A stretch of DNA of 5,801 nucleotides from IMG/VR virus record IMGVR_UViG_3300045988_010436, positions 1 through 5,801 of that record; one strand, given 5' to 3'. Of this stretch, positions 1 through 5,589 are shown one piece after another; within the stretch, counting starts at the first letter, position 1, and each line of letters starts with the position of its first letter. This stretch comes from a virus. Below the pieces are notes generated by a model, which was not told the origin of the DNA, searched no databases, and was given only the letters and a program-made list of their open reading frames with translations. The position numbers and the translations under genes were made by a program.

Positions 1-119
1 ACGCGGGTCAACTCATTCCATTCTATGTCGATGAGGTGTTACCGGGTGACACATTCAGCATCGACCAAGCCGCAATTATCCGCATGACTACGCCTATCTT
101 CCCGGTTATGGACAACTGC
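1..119. repeat. Terminal direct repeat, left copy: circular-genome assembly overlap identical to 5683-5801.
   Basis: Base-by-base reading shows 1-119 equals 5683-5801. The repeat lies inside the VP1 reading frame and joins it seamlessly. Unit length is 5682 nt. Confidence 0.97.
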
Positions 120-1544
120 CACATGGACATCTACTATTTCAACGTTCCGTGTCGCATCCTCTGGGAGCACTTCAAACGGTTTATGGGCGAGAACGATGAA
201 GGACCGTGGACGCAAACAAACAACTACTACATTCCACAGGTGAGTGTAGTCGGAACAGAAAACAAGCCAGCACCTTATGAAGGGAGCATCATGGACTACA
301 TGGGCATTCCTACAAAGGTGAGCAAAGGAGACAGTACAAAATTCAGCGTTAACGCACTGCCGTTCCGCGCATACGTCATGATTTGGCAGGAATGGTTCAG
401 AGACCAAAATTTAGACAATCCGGCCATCAACAGCACGAAAGACGCAACTGCCATCTACACTGACGATGAGACAAAGGGCATGGACGCAAAAACACCTGAC
501 ATTGAGTATATTCTCCAGAACGCATACACGGGCGGCAGACCGCTGCCGGTAAATAAATACCACGACTACTTCACATCGGCTTTGCCAACCCCTCAGAAAG
601 GGCCGAGTGTGAGTATCCCATTAGAGGGAAACGCCCCAATATTCGGATACAGCGACCACCAAAGAACAAAGATAGGCGATCCATCAGGAGTCAATAATCT
701 CCAAAACCAGAACATACCGCTTGGAATTGTAGGAACAAGCCCACAAAATGTTCCAGTATACCTAGGCGCAAAGATGGATAGAGTAACAGCCGCAACCGTC
801 AATCAGCTGAGACAGGCGTTTCAGGTACAAAAATACTATGAGCAGCTGGCACGCGGTGGCAGCCGTTACCGCGAGATGATTTATTCACTGTTCCATACGA
901 AAATCAGCGATAAAACGGTACAAATCCCAGAGTATCTGGGCGGTACGCGAATCACCATCAACATGAGTCAGGTCATCCAGACCAGCAGCACGACCACCGA
1001 AAGTCCGCAGGGCAACACGGCAGCAATAAGTGTTACGCCGTACAACGGGAGCATATTTACGAAGAGCTTCGAAGAGCACGGCTATGTTATCGGCGTATGC
1101 TGCATCCGACATGACCATACCTACCAGCAGGGCTTGGAGCGCATGTGGAGTCGCAAAACAAATCTGGATTTTTACTATCCTGCGTTTGCAAACTTGGGCG
1201 AGCAGGCCATTCTGAAGAAGGAGCTGTATCTCACTGGTACGAGCACTGATGAGCAGGCCTTTGGTTATCAGGAAGCTTGGGCAGAATACAGGATGAAGCC
1301 GAACCGCATTAGCGGCAAGTTCCGTTCGAATGCAACGGGGACGTTGGACAGCTGGCACTACGGCGACAACTACAAAGAAGTTCCGAGCCTGAGCCAGGCA
1401 TGGATGAAGGAAGGAGACTCCGAGATTCAGAGGACTCTGGCCGTGGATAACGAGCCGCAGTTTATCATGGATACCGTCATCGACAATACGTCTGTAAGAC
1501 CTATGCCTATGTACAGCATCCCGGGTCTCGTAGACCATCACTAA
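1..1544 (+). CDS. VP1: Major capsid protein VP1 (phiX174 F-like), 3' portion. The ORF enters the window already open; the first full codon starts at nt 3 and the true start is ATG 5586 across the circular junction.
   Basis: The frame is open from nt 3 to TAA 1542-1544. The sequence ...NAGQLIPFYVDEVLPGDTFSIDQAAIIRMTTPIFPVMDNCHMDIYYFNVPCRILW... is the conserved N-terminal signature of Microviridae major capsid proteins. Joined to 5586-5682 it gives 1641 nt (546 aa), a typical gokushovirus VP1 size. Confidence 0.96.
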   Translation, partial: AGQLIPFYVDEVLPGDTFSIDQAAIIRMTTPIFPVMDNCHMDIYYFNVPCRILWEHFKRFMGENDEGPWTQTNNYYIPQVSVVGTENKPAPYEGSIMDYMGIPTKVSKGDSTKFSVNALPFRAYVMIWQEWFRDQNLDNPAINSTKDATAIYTDDETKGMDAKTPDIEYILQNAYTGGRPLPVNKYHDYFTSALPTPQKGPSVSIPLEGNAPIFGYSDHQRTKIGDPSGVNNLQNQNIPLGIVGTSPQNVPVYLGAKMDRVTAATVNQLRQAFQVQKYYEQLARGGSRYREMIYSLFHTKISDKTVQIPEYLGGTRITINMSQVIQTSSTTTESPQGNTAAISVTPYNGSIFTKSFEEHGYVIGVCCIRHDHTYQQGLERMWSRKTNLDFYYPAFANLGEQAILKKELYLTGTSTDEQAFGYQEAWAEYRMKPNRISGKFRSNATGTLDSWHYGDNYKEVPSLSQAWMKEGDSEIQRTLAVDNEPQFIMDTVIDNTSVRPMPMYSIPGLVDHH

Positions 1545-1608: not shown

Positions 1609-1633
1609 CCTCAGCTGAGAGTGTCAGCTGAGG
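1609..1633 (+). other. Perfect 10-bp stem / 5-nt loop hairpin in the VP1-VP2 intergenic region.
   Basis: CCTCAGCTGA (1609-1618), loop GAGTG, TCAGCTGAGG (1624-1633). The arms are exact reverse complements and each carries CAGCTG. No T-run follows. Confidence 0.8.
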
Positions 1634-1656
1634 CCTCAACTGACGAAAGGGGGGAA

Positions 1657-1686
1657 GCCCGGGGCAAAACCCCGGGCTATTTTATT
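1657..1686 (+). terminator. Rho-independent terminator-like hairpin after VP1, probably leaky/attenuating.
   Basis: GCCCGGGG (1657-1664), loop CAAAA, CCCCGGGC (1670-1677): a perfect 8-bp all-GC stem followed by TATTTTATT (1678-1686). It ends directly at the VP2 ATG. Confidence 0.6.
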
Positions 1687-2535
1687 ATGGCATTAGCAGC
1701 AATCGGCAGCGCACTACTCGGAATCGGCAAACAACTACTCCCAACAATCGCCGGAGGACTCATAAACAAATTCCTAGGCGGGAATCTGATGGAAAGCAAT
1801 GGGGGGAGCAGTCAGCACAACGAAAGTTCGAGCCAAGGAGGCGGCTACAGCAGCGCCGCCAGCGGCGTAAACCGAGAGCAAAATCTACAAGACTGGAACA
1901 GTATGCTAGGGGCAATTCAAGGCAATATGCAAAGCCAGCAGAAGTTTAACCGTCGGAGCATGTTCGAGCAAATGGGCTATAACACCATGGCAGCAATCAC
2001 TCAGGGTGTATATAACCAGATAAGCAACAACGCAGCGATGAGCTACAACAGCGCAGAAGCAGCCAAAAACAGAGCTTGGCAAGAGCAAATGAGCAATACA
2101 GCTTATCAGCGAGCTGTGGAAGACATGCGAAAAGCTGGCATCAACCCTATCTTAGCATACCAACAGGGCGGAGCGAGCACGCCGGGAGGCGCACAGGGCA
2201 CTATCAGCGGGGCAAGTATGGGTCTCGCAAGCAGCAGTGCGGCGAACGCAAGCGCTCTCGGAGTAAGCCAGAACCACAACAACACATGGAGCAAAAGCGA
2301 AAGTAACTGGTACAACGCAGCACAAGCGGTCGGAGACGCTACAAGCTGGTCCCACACAAGCGCAGACAAAGCGTTTAACGCATTCAAGGACGTCTTCAAC
2401 GACCTCAGCAACCTAAACAGTGGCGTCGGCGGAGGTGTAGGGAGAAAACCAAAAAAAGATGAGCTCGAATACAAACCGGGAAGAGACTTCATTGGAAGCA
2501 AAAACATCGAATTTTGGAAAGGAAAACTTAAATAA
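1687..2535 (+). CDS. VP2: Minor capsid / DNA pilot protein VP2 (phiX174 H analogue), 282 aa.
   Basis: ATG 1687 is in frame with track ORF 1621-2535. The N-terminus is Gly/Ala/Leu-rich (MALAAIGSALLGIGKQLLPTIAGGLINKFLGG). The low-complexity Ser/Gly/Gln/Asn body contains the conserved gokushovirus VP2 block NTAYQRAVEDMRKAGINPILAY. Its position directly after VP1 fits the family. GTG 1621 lies inside the upstream hairpin and has no RBS. Confidence 0.88.
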   Translation: MALAAIGSALLGIGKQLLPTIAGGLINKFLGGNLMESNGGSSQHNESSSQGGGYSSAASGVNREQNLQDWNSMLGAIQGNMQSQQKFNRRSMFEQMGYNTMAAITQGVYNQISNNAAMSYNSAEAAKNRAWQEQMSNTAYQRAVEDMRKAGINPILAYQQGGASTPGGAQGTISGASMGLASSSAANASALGVSQNHNNTWSKSESNWYNAAQAVGDATSWSHTSADKAFNAFKDVFNDLSNLNSGVGGGVGRKPKKDELEYKPGRDFIGSKNIEFWKGKLK

Positions 2536-3555
2536 ATGGGATGCAACAAACCGTTAATCCGGTTTTATGTACCTCATGATAGAGAGGCGAGCGGGCGAGT
2601 ATACTCACTCGCTTCTTTCAACAAAGTTCATAAGACCGAAATGAAATATGAAGACCTGATGTATCGGAAAGATGTAATGATGATTCCTTGTGGACAATGC
2701 ACAGGATGCAAACTACGCAAACGCAAAGACTGGGCCACGCGGATGGAGCTAGAAGCATACAGTCACGACAAGGAAAGCATCTGGTTCATCACACTGACCT
2801 ATGATGACGACCATATACCAACACAGGACACGGAAACAGGAGAAATCTTCAAAGGGGGCGTGAACGTCTGGAAAGACACCTCAGAGCGTCCCAGAACGGT
2901 GCAAACTTTAAGCGTAGAGGATGTCCAGTTATTCATGAAAAGGCTTAGAAAAGCCGTCAGCGGGCCTCTCAGATACTTCCTAGCCGGAGAGTATGGAGAC
3001 AACACCTCAAGACCACACTATCACATGATACTATACGGGTGGTATCCGGACGACTTAGAGCCGATTCACAAACTGTCAAGATTCGGACACTACACGAGCG
3101 ATAAACTAATCAAAGTCTGGGGGCAAGGGACAGTTGACATAGCTCAAGCAACACCAGAGACATATAACTACGTAGCCGGATATGTGACCAAGAAACTATA
3201 CGGAAACGACAAGGACAGGTATAGGAAAATGGGACTCATACCGCCATTCTGCGTAATGAGCCGAAAACCAGGACTCGGAGACGAGTGGTTTCAAAAGAAT
3301 CAAGAAAGGCTATGGCAACTTGGATACATCCAGCTGACAAACGGCAAGAGAGCAGCCATTCCAGAATATTATTGGCGAAAGCTGGAAGCTGAAAATCCTG
3401 AAAAGGCGTGGAGAATAAAGCAGTATCGACAGGAAAAAGCCATTGCATCCCTAATCGAAAGAAACATGGAAACTGACAAACGGTATGCCGAACAACTAGC
3501 CGATAAAGAAGCAATCATGAAGAAGAAGATGTCCAAAGCAAAGGGCGTTTTTTAG
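2536..3555 (+). CDS. VP4: Replication initiation protein VP4 (HUH rolling-circle endonuclease, phiX174 gpA family), 339 aa.
   Basis: The ATG abuts the VP2 stop (TAA-ATG). Cys cluster PCGQCTGCKLRKRKDW; motif 1 FITLTYDD (from nt 2785); HUH motif PHYHMILYG (H-Y-H at 3016-3024); double-tyrosine catalytic motif YVAGYVTKK (compare phiX174 YVAKYVNK). Confidence 0.96.
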   Translation: MGCNKPLIRFYVPHDREASGRVYSLASFNKVHKTEMKYEDLMYRKDVMMIPCGQCTGCKLRKRKDWATRMELEAYSHDKESIWFITLTYDDDHIPTQDTETGEIFKGGVNVWKDTSERPRTVQTLSVEDVQLFMKRLRKAVSGPLRYFLAGEYGDNTSRPHYHMILYGWYPDDLEPIHKLSRFGHYTSDKLIKVWGQGTVDIAQATPETYNYVAGYVTKKLYGNDKDRYRKMGLIPPFCVMSRKPGLGDEWFQKNQERLWQLGYIQLTNGKRAAIPEYYWRKLEAENPEKAWRIKQYRQEKAIASLIERNMETDKRYAEQLADKEAIMKKKMSKAKGVF

Positions 3556-3564
3556 CTCTGGTGT

Positions 3565-3621
3565 CACTCAGCCAAGTAACTATCAAGTATATATACTTGG
3601 CTGAGTGTTTTTTAGTTTTTT
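3565..3621 (+). terminator. Strong rho-independent terminator downstream of VP4.
   Basis: CACTCAGCCAAGTA (3565-3578) pairs perfectly with TACTTGGCTGAGTG (3594-3607): a 14-bp stem with a 15-nt loop. It is followed by TTTTTTAGTTTTTT (3608-3621). The loop region also contains the palindrome CAAGTATATACTTG. Confidence 0.85.
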
Positions 3622-3625
3622 ATCA

Positions 3626-3666
3626 GCGCGCGCGCACGCGCGCATAATTGCGCACGCGCACGCGCG
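3626..3666. repeat. Alternating purine-pyrimidine, almost pure GC imperfect palindrome (cruciform / ssDNA hairpin; Z-DNA-prone).
   Basis: Arms 3627-3644 and 3649-3666 pair at 15 of 18 positions (14 G:C plus 1 A:T; three C/A mismatches) around loop TAAT (3645-3648). Strict Pu-Py alternation runs over 3626-3646 and 3649-3666. The element is flanked by T-rich and AT-rich DNA. Confidence 0.9.
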
Positions 3667-3714
3667 ATTTTTATTATATTATTATTAACTTGTTGTAGTC
3701 GTAGTAGTAGGGAG

Positions 3715-3888
3715 TGTTGAAATGTTGAATACTATGAATTTTTATCCTTGGAACGATATTTTCTGGTTAATTTTGATGTTGATACTTTTGTGGATAACTT
3801 GTTGAATTGTTGAAAGTGTAGCAATATGCACAAAAACCTTTGTGCAACATTTTGTGGAAAACCTGTTGAAAGTGTTGAAAGTGTTGAA
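3715..3888 (+). repeat. Iteron array: seven exact TGTTGAA copies, including three tandem 9-mers.
   Basis: TGTTGAA at 3715, 3723, 3800, 3808, 3864, 3873 and 3882. Tandem TGTTGAAAG TGTTGAAAG TGTTGAAAA spans 3864-3890. Variants are TGTTGAT (3777) and TGTTGTA (3691). A 21-nt direct repeat TTTTGTGGAWAACYTGTTGAA lies at 3786-3806 and 3850-3870 (19/21 identical). Confidence 0.9.
3789..3861 (-). promoter_or_regulatory. Cluster of DnaA-box-like 9-mers.
   Basis: 3789-3797 TGTGGATAA is the reverse complement of the perfect consensus TTATCCACA. 3853-3861 TGTGGAAAA corresponds to TTTTCCACA, which fits TTWTNCACA. There are 8/9 matches at 3824-3832 (ATATGCACA, + strand) and 3841-3849 (TGTGCAACA, - strand). 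These two form the arms of an 8-bp hairpin: TGCACAAA 3827-3834 and TTTGTGCA 3839-3846, loop AACC. Confidence 0.55.
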
Positions 3889-3929
3889 AATGTAATTAGA
3901 GGCAGTTCGGCAGCTGACCGAAAAGTTAC

Positions 3930-3969
3930 GTCATGCTCTTCGTACGGCGCACCGCGCCTAGCGCATGAC
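3930..3969 (+). other. Compound GC-rich stem-loop upstream of the promoter.
   Basis: Outer 7-bp stem: GTCATGC (3930-3936) with GCATGAC (3963-3969). Inner 5-bp stem: GGCGC (3946-3950) with GCGCC (3954-3958), loop ACC. A smaller hairpin sits just upstream: TTCGG (3906-3910), loop CAGCTGA, CCGAA (3918-3922). Confidence 0.65.
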
Positions 3970-3974
3970 CTCTC

Positions 3975-4023
3975 AAAAAAAGTTTCAAAAAACTATTGAC
4001 AAATCTCAAAAGTATGGTATAAT
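3975..4023 (+). promoter_or_regulatory. Near-consensus sigma70-type promoter with extended -10 and an UP-element-like A-tract region.
   Basis: -35 TTGACA (3996-4001), 16-nt spacer, TGg extended motif (4015-4017), -10 TATAAT (4018-4023). A7 (3975-3981) and A6 (3987-3992) tracts lie upstream. Predicted start near 4030, about 20 nt before the ORF at 4050. Confidence 0.8.
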
Positions 4024-4049
4024 ATAATCAAAGAAAGGCGGAGAATAAA

Positions 4050-4247
4050 ATGAGAAAACCACGATTGAGCGAAAACACCATAGGGAAACTCGAAATTTAC
4101 GGACACGCAGAATCCGGAAAAAACTACTACGAACTGAAAGACTACATCGACGCAAAAGGAAAATGTTACACGGTGCTTGAATGGACAAACCTTAAGAACG
4201 GAGATGCAAAACAATTCGATTGGGAAAAATGCACAAAAGAGGCTTGA
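4050..4247 (+). CDS. Orphan 65-aa soluble protein in a stand-alone promoter-ORF-terminator cassette; function unknown.
   Basis: SD GGCGGAGA (4037-4044) lies 5 nt before ATG 4050. The consensus promoter is immediately upstream and a terminator overlaps the stop. The protein is Lys/Glu/Asp- and aromatic-rich, with 2 Cys and no hydrophobic segment. I recognise no family motif. Confidence 0.7.
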   Translation: MRKPRLSENTIGKLEIYGHAESGKNYYELKDYIDAKGKCYTVLEWTNLKNGDAKQFDWEKCTKEA

Positions 4248-4265
4248 CGAGTCTCTTTTTTTTTT
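4235..4265 (+). terminator. Rho-independent terminator of the 65-aa ORF cassette.
   Basis: AAAAGAGGC (4235-4243) pairs with GTCTCTTTT (4251-4259), including one G:U. The loop TTGACGA contains the stop codon. A 10-T run (4256-4265) follows. Confidence 0.65.
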
Positions 4266-4372
4266 ATATACTAAAGGCAATCAAGCAGCACAGAAGTACA
4301 TTTAACAAATTCCATTTTTACAAAATAACATTATGAAAGAGGTGAACTGCTCTGACTCTCCAAGAAATCAAG

Positions 4373-4456
4373 ATGCTGTTTGAAAACATCCAAAAAATCC
4401 TTGCCATGCTGGACAAAATCTACCACGCAGTAACAGGGGACAAACCGGAGGCTTGA
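4373..4456 (+). CDS. Possible 27-aa leader ORF (MLFENIQKILAMLDKIYHAVTGDKPEA); weak call.
   Basis: ATG 4373 to TGA 4454-4456, which ends 1 nt before the ATG of the next ORF. No convincing SD lies upstream, and the ORF is very short. Confidence 0.2.
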   Translation: MLFENIQKILAMLDKIYHAVTGDKPEA

Positions 4457-4457
4457 A

Positions 4458-4685
4458 ATGGAAAACAAACCATGGAATGTAAGAGACCAGACCGACGAGA
4501 ACCTTATGCAAGAGTTGACGAAAACCTACAAGGCAATAGACGCCGCGTACAAAATGGTACGACAGGCAACAAACATCGAAGACGCAAAGTATTATATTGA
4601 CATTGCGTTTAGAAAAAAAGCATCTGCCAGTAACATTGAGGTGGAAATCCTCAGAAGGGAAATCAACCATGGCAAAGAGGAGTAA
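4458..4685 (+). CDS. Orphan 75-aa charged, probably helical protein; function unknown.
   Basis: Strong SD GGAGG (4447-4451) lies 6 nt before ATG 4458. Its 3' end overlaps the J-like gene start by 17 nt, as expected for compact phage organisation. No motif recognised. Confidence 0.6.
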   Translation: MENKPWNVRDQTDENLMQELTKTYKAIDAAYKMVRQATNIEDAKYYIDIAFRKKASASNIEVEILRREINHGKEE

Positions 4686-4788
4686 AGTCCGCAAATCCAA
4701 AGACGCAAAAATCTACAACAAGACCGCACGAAAGACAAAGGCAATCAACCTTGGAAGCGGCGCAATGAGAGGGGGAATCCGACTGTGA
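4669..4788 (+). CDS. Small basic DNA-binding/packaging peptide (phiX174 J / Chlamydia-phage ORF8-like), 39 aa.
   Basis: MAKRSKVRKSKDAKIYNKTARKTKAINLGSGAMRGGIRL has an Arg/Lys-rich N-terminal half and the C-terminal MRGGIRL/F motif that I recall from gokushovirus ORF8-type peptides. ATG 4669 is in frame with track ORF 4597-4788. The upstream ATG 4597 adds a non-basic extension with no RBS. Confidence 0.75.
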   Translation: MAKRSKVRKSKDAKIYNKTARKTKAINLGSGAMRGGIRL

Positions 4789-4883
4789 GTGCTGTATTCG
4801 CAAGCATGACTATGGCATTTCTCGCAGCGGGGTTTTACCTCGTCATTAACACAATCGACATCATCAAAGAATGGTTCAAATAA
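4785..4883 (+). CDS. Unannotated 32-aa hydrophobic (single transmembrane helix) peptide; below the ORF-track size cut-off.
   Basis: GTG 4785 overlaps the J-like stop (GTGA). SD-like AGGGGG (4770-4775) lies 9 nt upstream. The translation is (M)SAVFASMTMAFLAAGFYLVINTIDIIKEWFK. TAA 4881-4883 runs into the next gene's SD (TAAGGAG). The ORF exactly fills the otherwise unexplained 107-nt gap. An alternative in-frame ATG is at 4806. Confidence 0.5.
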   Translation: MSAVFASMTMAFLAAGFYLVINTIDIIKEWFK

Positions 4884-4895
4884 GGAGACAATCAT

Positions 4896-5132
4896 ATGAA
4901 CGTATACGGAATTTTCGATAAATGCGTGATGGGCTATATCACCATCTTTACCGAACGTGACGACAAGGTGGCCGAACGCAATTTCAAAATCGCACTGACC
5001 GATGACCGGAATATCATGAGCAAGACTCCGAACGACTATCGGTTGGTGCGCCTGGCAAAGTTTGACGAGAAAACGGGCCTGTTTGAGAACGAAAAGGAGA
5101 ACATCTTCGATGGCGTATCGCTCAGTAAGTAA
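4896..5132 (+). CDS. VP5: VP5-like non-structural protein of gokushoviruses, 78 aa.
   Basis: SD AAGGAG (4882-4887) lies 8 nt before the ATG. The pattern MNVYGIFDK...ERNFKIAL...TPNDYRLVRLAKFDEKTGLF matches my recollection of the conserved Y.I.D / A.R.F / P.DY.L...G.FD..TG layout of VP5-type proteins. Its position just upstream of VP3 also fits. Confidence 0.7.
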   Translation: MNVYGIFDKCVMGYITIFTERDDKVAERNFKIALTDDRNIMSKTPNDYRLVRLAKFDEKTGLFENEKENIFDGVSLSK

Positions 5133-5589
5133 TTTCAGAGAGACTACAATAGCAAAACCCACCGAAGCCGGAGAGACCGTGAGGCGCACATACCTCTGGG
5201 AACTCAACGAGAAAGGCGAAAAGGTGCTAACGCTTGACCAGATCATCGACCAGCAGGCGGAAATCGACAGCTTCCTTGAAGAAACCAAGCTGGAAAACAT
5301 CATCCGGCGAGCATCCATCGACCCTGACATTGCAGCTAGGCTGATGCCGGATATGGGCGGTGGACTCCAGGACGCAACCGACATGCCGGAGAATCTGATG
5401 GAGCTCCAAAACATCATGCTCCGAGCAGAACAAATCTGGGATGAAATCCCGAAAGAAATCAAGCTCAAGTTTGACAATGACGTTGACAAGTTTGTCGCAA
5501 GCTTCGGCACTGTTGACTGGGCGAAGAATCTGGGCATTTATCAGGAAAAGCAGCCTGAAGAGCCTAAAAAAGAGGAGACCGCTGAATGA
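5110..5589 (+). CDS. VP3: Internal scaffolding protein VP3, 159 aa.
   Basis: SD AAGGAGA (5094-5100) lies 9 nt before ATG 5110, in frame with track ORF 5062-5589. The protein is acidic and helical, with a C-terminal block IPKEIKLKFDNDVDKFVASF typical of gokushovirus scaffold proteins. The stop overlaps the VP1 start (ATGA at 5586-5589). Confidence 0.82.
   Translation: MAYRSVSNFRETTIAKPTEAGETVRRTYLWELNEKGEKVLTLDQIIDQQAEIDSFLEETKLENIIRRASIDPDIAARLMPDMGGGLQDATDMPENLMELQNIMLRAEQIWDEIPKEIKLKFDNDVDKFVASFGTVDWAKNLGIYQEKQPEEPKKEETAE

Follow-up and report, generated by a model that had tools for sequence, protein, structure and literature searches.

In phiX174 the viral-strand origin, written CAACTTG^ATATTAATAAC and also CCCCCAACTTG^ATATTAATAAC (GenBank rep_origin at 4306), lies on the coding strand inside gene A and has no hairpin, and the textbook rule for Microviridae is that the coding strand is packaged (positive polarity). 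Gokushoviruses are among the most abundant single-stranded DNA (ssDNA) phages of gut and environmental viromes, and to our knowledge their replication origins are undefined. Plasmids of the pMV158 family have their single-strand origin upstream of the double-strand one and are mosaic with respect to their rep, origin and single-strand-origin modules (PMC3541243).

The window, by which the whole stretch of 5801 nt analyzed here is meant, is a gokushovirus-like microvirus genome. Its nearest relatives in GenBank, with 81-84% nucleotide identity, are gut genomes recorded as "Gokushovirus WZ-2015a" and "Microviridae sp." Its replication initiator VP4 contains the HUH motif RPHYHMILY and the two-tyrosine motif Y212-VAG-Y216-VTKK, the spacing of which is identical to that of Y343-VAK-Y347-VNKK in the phiX174 A protein, and motifs 1 and 2 of the two proteins were aligned by BLASTP. 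The region 3' of VP4 is the only long non-coding region of the genome. The features to which the text refers are the following:

36-1544, plus strand: VP1 major capsid protein (Pfam Phage_F, E = 1.6e-137)
1621-2535, plus strand: VP2 pilot protein
2536-3555, plus strand: VP4 replication initiator (PF23343, phrog_942)
3560-3607, minus strand: hairpin 1, a putative Rep-recognition and nick hairpin that may double as VP4 terminator, with the flank GGTGTCAC at 3560-3567
3608-3625, plus strand: T-rich run TTTTTTAGTTTTTTATCA, on the plus strand the terminator tail of hairpin 1 and on the minus strand an A-rich spacer between the hairpins
3626-3666, minus strand as the perfectly pairing strand: GC hairpin, arms 3627-3644 and 3649-3666, loop 3645-3648 (TAAT)
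3667-3686, no strand assigned: AT-rich spacer from the GC hairpin to the conserved block, different in length and sequence among relatives, some of which have extra hairpins inserted
3687-3890, no strand assigned: conserved non-coding block starting with AACTTGTTGTAGTCGTAGTAGTAGG and holding seven TGTTGAA repeats (3715-3888)
3996-4023, plus strand: consensus sigma-70 promoter (TTGACA-16-TGnTATAAT) driving the downstream small ORFs, the right-hand edge of the hairpin-bearing non-coding region
5062-5589, plus strand: VP3 scaffold protein

The GC hairpin and its neighbours

The GC hairpin (GCGCGCGCGCACGCGCGCATAATTGCGCACGCGCACGCGCG) is 41 nt long, not 40 nt as given in a preliminary description made from the letters of the window, the anatomy of which otherwise holds. 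Alternating purine-pyrimidine (Pu/Py) runs extend over 3626-3646 (21 nt) and 3649-3666 (18 nt), and on the plus strand 15 of the 18 positions pair around TAAT, the exceptions being three C/A mismatches with a spacing of 3 bp (3633/3660, 3636/3657 and 3639/3654). The mismatches recur every 3 bp because each arm approximates a (CGCGCA)n tandem hexamer on the plus strand, which is the coding strand. On the minus strand the same letters form a perfect 18-bp stem in which the three C/A mismatches are replaced by G·T wobbles. This perfection of the opposite strand was overlooked in the preliminary description. When folded with DNA parameters, the plus strand reached -18 kcal/mol, no better than shuffles (z = -0.07), and the minus strand -24.8 kcal/mol (z = -2.75). 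Shifting the minus-strand register by 2 lowered the pairing from 100% to 88-94%, in agreement with the earlier idea that the mismatches help to fix the register. The element contains 13 CpG, compared with 2.2 per 40 nt genome-wide, and as an alternating, CpG-rich tract of at least 12 bp it has the sequence character of tracts that can form Z-DNA. No other GC-rich alternating run of at least 14 nt is present in the window, in line with the compositional uniqueness first described; in 500 dinucleotide shuffles the longest alternating run had a mean of 12.8 nt and a maximum of 21 nt. Its position, likewise as described before, is 3' of VP4 and of a terminator-like hairpin with T-run (3565-3625), in AT-rich surroundings. 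Rfam cmscan of the whole window (E <= 1) gave no match at 3600-3700. The sole Rfam match in the window was a weak, sub-threshold anti-hemB at 1608-1685.

The terminator-like hairpin is hairpin 1. Its 14-bp stem (3565-3578 paired to 3594-3607) has no mismatch, T-runs come after it, and its fold scores are z = -5.9 and -8.6. Its loop holds TATCAAG (3581-3587), and the minus strand reads TACTTGATAG; the complement of the loop is ACTTGATA, the phiX174 origin core, and the loop also matches the pC194 nick core. The reverse complement of 3560-3607, comprising hairpin 1 and its flank, is CACTCAGCCAAGTATATATACTTGATAGTTACTTGGCTGAGTGACACC. Among 38 variants of hairpin 1 the stems covary richly and the loop, (CT)ATCAAG(T/A)A, is invariant. 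The match to ACTTGATA suggests hairpin 1 as the nick site and the minus strand as the one that would be displaced, and by analogy the putative cut would be located on the minus strand between 3584 and 3583 (ACTTG^ATA) in the hairpin 1 loop.

The conserved block on the other side is a neighbour of the hairpin module and separate from it. It is common at the DNA level to gokushoviruses with proteins that are just 33-55% identical, its orientation varies relative to the genes and to the GC hairpin, and its seven TGTTGAA repeats compare with 1.1 copies expected genome-wide, a number matched by none of 200 shuffles. Several candidate elements in this part of the window were considered and rejected. 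A DnaA-box cluster in the block amounts to just 2 matches, equalled by 18 of 200 shuffles. A nick site at the block-start AACTTG, or at the pMV158-like TACTACGAC on the block complement, is not compatible with the free orientation of the block and a central dinucleotide that varies. A XerCD dif-like site at GCGCATAAT resembles the XerC arm alone, judged against what we take to be the E. coli dif site; a XerD-like arm is absent and the stretch is unconserved in relatives.

A BLAST search with 3540-4000 as query gave matches in 42 phage records, several of them beginning right at the GC hairpin (3626-3632). In parallel, IMG/VR was scanned with a hairpin-independent motif taken from the downstream block; this gave 119 loci, 70 of which are block-bearing microvirus sequences; together with 8 GenBank relatives these form a set of 78 block-bearing whole genomes or contigs, whose VP1 and VP4 are 39-83% and 33-95% identical, respectively, to those of the window (tblastn). 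A GC hairpin past VP4 is found in relatives: all 8 fetched GenBank relatives carry a GC-alternating hairpin in the same place, with different sequences and loops, and so do most of the block-bearing genomes. In 18 of the 78 the GC hairpin is without trace, and hairpin 1 and the block are kept in those 18. The loops found among relatives are TAAT, GTAATC, AAA, TTT, GTAG, ATAG, TAGA, AAG, TAG and AAAAGTA, close clades differ in whether they have the hairpin, and insertions are found between it and the adjoining elements. The worry that the element might be an assembly or chimeric artefact can be dismissed, as the same kind of element occupies the same place in dozens of IMG/VR contigs and in the 8 GenBank records, which other laboratories produced; the GC hairpin is genuine.

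For a second scan of IMG/VR a two-arm hairpin pattern was used, which allowed no T in the arms and served for location and polarity only and not for the mismatch census. The same kind of hairpin was detected in distant gokushoviruses of 4.4-5.1 kb; in most of these it directly follows VP4 or overlaps the VP4 3' end, and the coding strand bears the CA-type arms. Among 80 gokushoviruses of an unbiased sample, consisting of one lineage representative, L130, and 79 genomes fetched with the L130 VP4, it was detected in L130 and 5 close relatives only. It is thus missing from most gokushoviruses of this sample, and any function must be lineage-specific or redundant. The cultured gokushoviruses Chp2, SpV4 and phiMH2K lack both the GC hairpin and the GGTGTCA motif. 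The AACTTGATA of SpV4 has AT-rich, probably coding surroundings and is uninformative. A scan of bacterial genomes, for which the block motif and not the hairpin served as query, revealed no prophage copy and no host. The matches obtained in that scan were a binned free microvirus contig and one chance match in a bacterial gene.

These distributions bear on the proposal, made in the preliminary description, that VP4 cuts the AT-rich TAAT loop of a GC stem that is extruded or folded in ssDNA, in the manner of CRESS-DNA viruses or pT181. A GC stem with an A/T loop adjoining the Rep gene in the only long non-coding region is what such a model would predict, and the many small, distant gokushoviruses with a similar hairpin 20-100 nt after VP4 or over its 3' end are in line with it. 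However, the loops of the GC hairpin vary in sequence and length, the element is missing in 18 of 78 relatives with homologous VP4 as well as in most gokushoviruses, and its coding-strand stem is weakened by about 20% A/C mismatches, whereas the loop of hairpin 1 is invariant and matches the phiX174 and pC194 nick core, and VP4 has a two-tyrosine motif of the phiX174 A type. Because its loop is unconserved and the element dispensable, the GC hairpin is very improbable as the Rep nick site, and hairpin 1 appears by far the better nick candidate.

Strand asymmetry of the GC hairpin

Mismatches were counted in 52 unique GC hairpin variants that had been ascertained via the unrelated flanking motif. 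On the coding strand the census gave 633 G-C and 111 A-T pairs, 182 A/C and 5 G·T mismatches and no transversion-type mismatches, and so A/C exceeds G·T by 36:1 and A/C mismatches make up about 20% of the coding-strand stem. In gapless alignments of 16-bp arms (18 distinct sequences, 288 cells) 100% of the cells are paired on the minus strand and 73.6% on the plus strand; double-sided changes occur at 8 of the 16 pairs and none of 500 shuffles reached the minus-strand result. The minus-strand fold is more stable than the plus-strand fold in 44 of 45 variants. On the coding strand the evolutionary path leads from G-C through A/C to A-T; seen from the opposite strand, C-G passes through T·G to T-A, which is the classic path by way of a wobble.

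Mutation bias was considered as a source of the asymmetry. When substitutions were polarised at 100 four-fold sites of 18 close genomes, the per-base rates were 2.9 for G to A and 1.3 for C to T, and transversions accounted for 43% of the changes. In the hairpin core T faces an A in 51 of 54 cases, even though G is more frequent there among the purines. A difference of just about 2.2-fold, together with the placing of T almost only opposite A, led us to reject this source. In hairpin 1, used as a control (38 variants), there are 480 Watson-Crick pairs, 6 A/C and 0 G·T, and as it is near-perfect on both strands, the wobble rate of about 20% is particular to the GC hairpin. The pattern of variation indicates that selection keeps the GC hairpin paired only on the strand opposite the genes, and this strand specificity is what is new beyond the preliminary description. 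The asymmetry could be mimicked by a hairpin-templated repair bias, if G·T or G·U were corrected within the coding-strand hairpin.

The same data were weighed against the possibility that the element is a functionless by-product, gained and lost where exchangeable modules join, whether as a (CGCGCA)n microsatellite prone to slippage, as a palindrome acting as recombination hotspot or as a selfish palindrome. The hexamer periodicity would be expected of such a by-product, as would arms that match each other as direct repeats (94%) besides inverted ones, the patchy distribution, the occurrence of similar tandem repeats in unrelated long contigs, and the position at the very edge of an exchanged or inverted block, where BLAST matches start (3626-3632). 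In contrast, pairing of 100% on one strand over 18 distinct sequences with 8 doubly changed pairs, an asymmetry far above mutation bias and a place relative to hairpin 1 that is stable across VP4 lineages 33-95% identical are not what a by-product would produce, and we consider this explanation decidedly improbable.

Pu/Py alternation in the arms is kept at about 100% across all variants, with no compensated transversions, though transversions make up 43% of neutral changes. This would be accounted for by an element acting as double-stranded DNA, in which the (CG/CA)n tract adopts Z-DNA or a cruciform under negative supercoiling and, placed between the VP4 transcription unit and the strong promoter at 3996, serves as a supercoil sink or insulator, or else aids origin melting. 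Z-DNA formation in vivo is known for (CG)n tracts that precede promoters, and d(CGCGTG) crystallises as Z-DNA with G·T wobbles; the 13 CpG in 41 nt and the location between a terminator-like hairpin and a consensus promoter fit this picture. The energetics of Z-DNA and cruciforms, however, are strand-symmetric and leave 182 A/C versus 5 G·T and the T placed only opposite A unexplained, the measured mutation bias being just about 2-fold. Z-DNA also needs no palindromy, yet compensatory changes maintain the pairing. A purely double-stranded role is therefore regarded as unlikely, and the strict alternation without compensated transversions hints at an extra duplex-level (e.g. Z-DNA) or slippage-related constraint.

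Covariation that tolerates G·U is the classic signature of an RNA stem, and folding with RNA parameters gave -29.2 kcal/mol for the plus strand and -38.0 kcal/mol for the minus strand (minus-sense z = -3.7). The element might thus act in RNA, either as a hairpin of a leftward transcript (a terminator, a pause or a 5'/3' stabiliser that protects VP4 against convergent transcription) or as a second terminator of the VP4 mRNA; in the window the plus-strand hairpin is followed by ATTTTTATTAT, and a scan flags a terminator-like site at 3646-3669. Against a leftward transcript, none of the minus-strand sigma-70-like promoters reaches 9/12 within 3450-4100 and none elsewhere exceeds 9/12, and the minus-sense hairpin is not followed by a U-tract. 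Against a second VP4 terminator, the plus-sense T-run is unconserved, being missing in KT264791, MG945138 and the IMG/VR contigs L013 and L060, and the A/C mismatches fall in the plus-sense stem. The combination of a stable stem and a conserved U-tract on the transcribed sense, which characterises intrinsic terminators, is not present in the GC hairpin, and the absence of an Rfam match also speaks against an RNA element, a reading that we judge to be distinctly unlikely. The probability left over from these four alternatives and the explanation given below falls to something not considered here.

Orientation of the module and polarity

In 15 of the 78 genomes the conserved block has the reverse orientation with respect to the genes, and hairpin polarity and skew are unchanged by the inversion. 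The downstream block was accordingly rejected as the setter of hairpin polarity. In four genomes with inverted block (L013, L089, L060 and L108) the GC hairpin flanks the block on its opposite side but remains CA-type when read on the coding strand, and it therefore tracks hairpin 1 and the genes. Its orientation is fixed relative to hairpin 1 also in the inverted L130 group, and in the L130 lineage both hairpins are flipped together relative to the genes. The earlier view that the element belongs to the neighbourhood of an origin holds, and the element is orientation-locked to the origin-like hairpin 1.

In 7 genomes of the second IMG/VR scan, L130 among them, the CA-type strand is the non-coding strand. 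The coding strand of these 7 is richer in T than in A and in G than in C, A making up just 0.02-0.11 of third codon positions, whereas genomes with CA-type arms on the coding strand all have A>>T, and the perfect strand of the GC hairpin is the T/G-rich strand in every case. L130 is a complete circular genome with a single-strand gene set. The coding strand of its group presents, in this order, a TG-type GC hairpin, GCGCG-TCTTT-ACTTGATAT-AAA-CGCGC and AAGGTGACACC; the window contains a homologous module, but on the non-coding strand. Within the 80-genome sample the CTTGATA...GTGACA motif is on the coding strand in 3 lineages with T-rich coding strands, namely the L130 group, L300 and L251; for L300 and L251 the nick motif on the coding strand is the sole marker that was checked. 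Across the same sample, coding-strand skew forms a broad, only weakly bimodal continuum. Block orientation is not correlated with skew. The coding strand of the cultured phage phiMH2K is likewise A-rich.

We tentatively favour, at a probability somewhat short of even, the explanation that the GC hairpin is an auxiliary single-strand signal comparable to a plasmid single-strand origin and located about 42 nt 5' of the putative nick, because selection acts on one strand, the orientation is locked to hairpin 1 and the placement is plasmid-like. The GC hairpin would be a strand-specific DNA hairpin within a replication-origin module, the minus strand of which would have the order 5'-GC hairpin, about 42 nt, nick-candidate hairpin, GGTGACACC-3'. 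The folding strand would be the displaced strand and the hairpin would act in ssDNA, the GC stem staying folded in SSB-coated ssDNA and aiding host enzymes to begin complementary-strand synthesis, a putative priming function. A less likely role would be to help Rep to recognise the end of a replication round. The dispensability of the element, with 18 of 78 genomes lacking it, is what an auxiliary single-strand origin would allow and an essential nick site would not. Inspection of the loops and arms of the GC hairpin by eye for a priming motif revealed none typical of a family, nor did a CTG-type primase site stand out; a priming hairpin does not require strict Pu/Py alternation. If the coding strand is packaged, however, the folding strand would never be free ssDNA, and an antisense RNA or a cruciform arm would then be needed.

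Literature searches on gokushovirus origins, hairpins and the packaged strand turned up neither a description of the GC hairpin nor experimental data on polarity. Gokushoviruses of the window type might be negative-sense: VP4 would nick the antisense strand in the hairpin 1 loop, and this strand would be displaced and encapsidated with the GC hairpin as its single-strand origin. This is rather unlikely on present evidence, and what speaks for it is the agreement of three independent markers on one strand, namely the G·T-tolerant pairing, the phiX174-like nick motif with its GGTGACACC flank and the genome-wide T/G-rich composition, as would be expected of a strand that is single-stranded for part of the time. 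The argument from skew depends on the report that coding strands of ssDNA phages are T-enriched through C to T deamination (PMC3278643). In L130 the coding strand is T-rich and carries all three markers, as though evolution had turned the origin module round with respect to the genes.

With these results a tempting but wrong assignment of the origin to the GC hairpin loop is removed, and hairpin 1, the loop of which carries ACTTGATA, is put forward as a concrete candidate for the nick. The GC hairpin is a conserved, strand-specific accessory that can be used as a sequence-only marker of the strand that is functionally single-stranded. Packaging of the antisense strand by a large clade of Microviridae becomes a testable possibility which, if true, would change the description of the family, the reading of virome libraries that retain strand information and the models of mutation bias in ssDNA phages.

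Comparison with known systems

With Z-DNA tracts such as (CG)n/(CA)n and d(CGCGTG), the GC hairpin shares strict, CpG-rich Pu/Py alternation, and CGCGTG is its repeat unit on the minus strand. Z-DNA, however, is a property of the duplex without strand polarity, whereas the evolution of the GC hairpin separates the strands and keeps the hairpin register. Bacterial REP/BIME elements are also short, GC-rich imperfect palindromes located after genes with a patchy distribution, and they are strand-specific when HUH (RAYT) enzymes handle them as ssDNA; the GC hairpin differs in being present in a single copy per phage genome, with no conserved GTAG-type flank and no RAYT gene.

The origin stem-loops of HUH Rep proteins (the CRESS nonanucleotide hairpin, pT181 IR-II and pMV158 hairpin I) resemble the GC hairpin in having a GC stem, an A/T loop and an HUH Rep nearby. 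They are essential and have an invariant nick motif in the loop, whereas the GC hairpin is dispensable and has a variable loop, the invariant motif being located in hairpin 1. Similarly, the likeness to the phiX174 origin, which consists of a hairpin 1 loop that reads ACTTGATA on the minus strand of the window or ACTTGATAT on the coding strand of the L130 group, and of the HUH and Y-x3-Y-VxKK motifs that VP4 and the A protein have in common, concerns hairpin 1 and not the GC hairpin.

The comparison with single-strand origins and initiation signals (sso/ssi) includes differences: the GC hairpin, the priming role of which is putative, has no sequence similarity to them and no RSB or CS-6-type motifs recognisable by eye, a strictly alternating CG/TG stem with wobbles about every 3 bp is not known from any described sso/ssi, and the GC hairpin folds on the antisense strand, in conflict with the accepted polarity of Microviridae. 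On the other hand, the G4 oric hairpins, the phiX174 primosome assembly site and the f1/M13 minus-strand origin are strand-specific, orientation-dependent hairpins beside a Rep nick, as is the GC hairpin beside its nick candidate, and sso/ssi signals are auxiliary, non-essential, modular and exchangeable, with which the dispensability and modularity of the GC hairpin agree. Extensive structure on one strand only, as in an sso, is seen in the GC hairpin (100% versus 73.6% paired), and whereas in plasmids it is the displaced strand on which the sso closely precedes the nick (PMC3541243), the GC hairpin would have this placement, relative to the putative nick, on its folding strand.

Coding-strand skew and marker polarity

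Skew at four-fold sites was compared for the whole window and for microvirus loci from the IMG/VR scans (L130, L140, L146, L152, L198, L201, and L203 versus L132-L217). The coding strand of gokushoviruses varies between strongly T-rich and strongly A-rich, with AT skews from -0.86 to +0.61, and the A-rich type, which includes the window, is the mirror image of the T bias usual in ssDNA phages. The polarity of the GC hairpin, the alternating-GC element at 3626-3666, and that of the CTTGATA...GGTGACAC motif flip with the coding-strand skew. One long reading frame lies opposite the genes:

4713-5537, minus strand: 274-aa ORF with ATG start, antisense to VP3 (scaffold protein) and its neighbours

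No match to this ORF was found in Pfam or PHROG, and it is probably a compositional artefact arising from the A-rich coding strand.

The probable VP1 terminator and the accessory region

Downstream of VP1, the major capsid protein gene, and downstream of the replication initiator gene VP4, the following features were located:

1656-1678: GC-rich hairpin with T-run, downstream of VP1 (AGCCCGGGGCAAAACCCCGGGCT and ATTTTATTAT)
3996-4023: sigma-70 promoter of perfect consensus, TTGACA-16-TGnTATAAT
about 4040: GGAG ribosome-binding site, downstream of this promoter
4050-4247: 65-aa ORF following the GGAG site
4235-4259: terminator-like hairpin with T-run

The hairpin at 1656-1678 is most likely simply the VP1 terminator; an anti-hemB Rfam match at 1608-1685 is sub-threshold (23.6 bits, E = 0.029). 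The 1.5-kb region 3556-5060 contains only small ORFs, none with a family match; as an accessory region, it accounts for the larger size of this genome relative to the classical 4.5-kb gokushoviruses.

A conserved repeat block and hairpins in relatives

3687-3890: conserved block of about 200 nt starting with AACTTGTTGTAG-NN-GTAGTAGTAG, also present in loci L009-L127

The block harbors seven TGTTGAA repeats and perhaps provides iterons or promoter control. Its DNA identity over 3776-3890 reaches 85-88% between gokushoviruses whose VP1 and VP4 are just 33-55% identical, and in 15 of the 78 genomes carrying its motif the orientation relative to the genes is opposite; the block behaves as a horizontally exchanged module, free in orientation. 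Two DnaA-box-like 9-mers occur in the window at 3789-3797 and 3853-3861, TGTGGATAA (exactly complementary to TTATCCACA) and TGTGGAAAA, a count without statistical significance (18 of 200 shuffles); in relatives, GTGGAAAAGTTGAA is frequent in place of GTTGAAATGTTGAA.

In small, distant gokushoviruses, homologs of the GC hairpin overlap the VP4 reading frame at its 3' end:

L149, 2135-2163
L217, 2969-2997
L132, 4467-4495

There the hairpin would encode an Arg/Ala/Thr/His-rich VP4 tail and would therefore be under coding and structural constraint together. Other clades (L005-L007, L060, L089, and L108) have a different conserved pair of C-rich hairpins, e.g., CCCCCCTTGCGTGTACGCCCCCCAAGGGGCTGCCGC, upstream of the GC hairpin and after the last gene; this pair is a possible alternative module acting as origin or terminator.

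Hairpin 1 as candidate nick site

3560-3607: hairpin 1, terminator-like, with conserved 5' flank GGTGTCAC

The stems of hairpin 1 covary freely from clade to clade, and the loop, (CT)ATCAAG(T/A)A, is invariant. As the site recognized and nicked by VP4, hairpin 1 on the non-coding strand is a strong candidate, and the complement of its loop, ACTTGATA, agrees with the phiX174 origin core AACTTG^ATAT.
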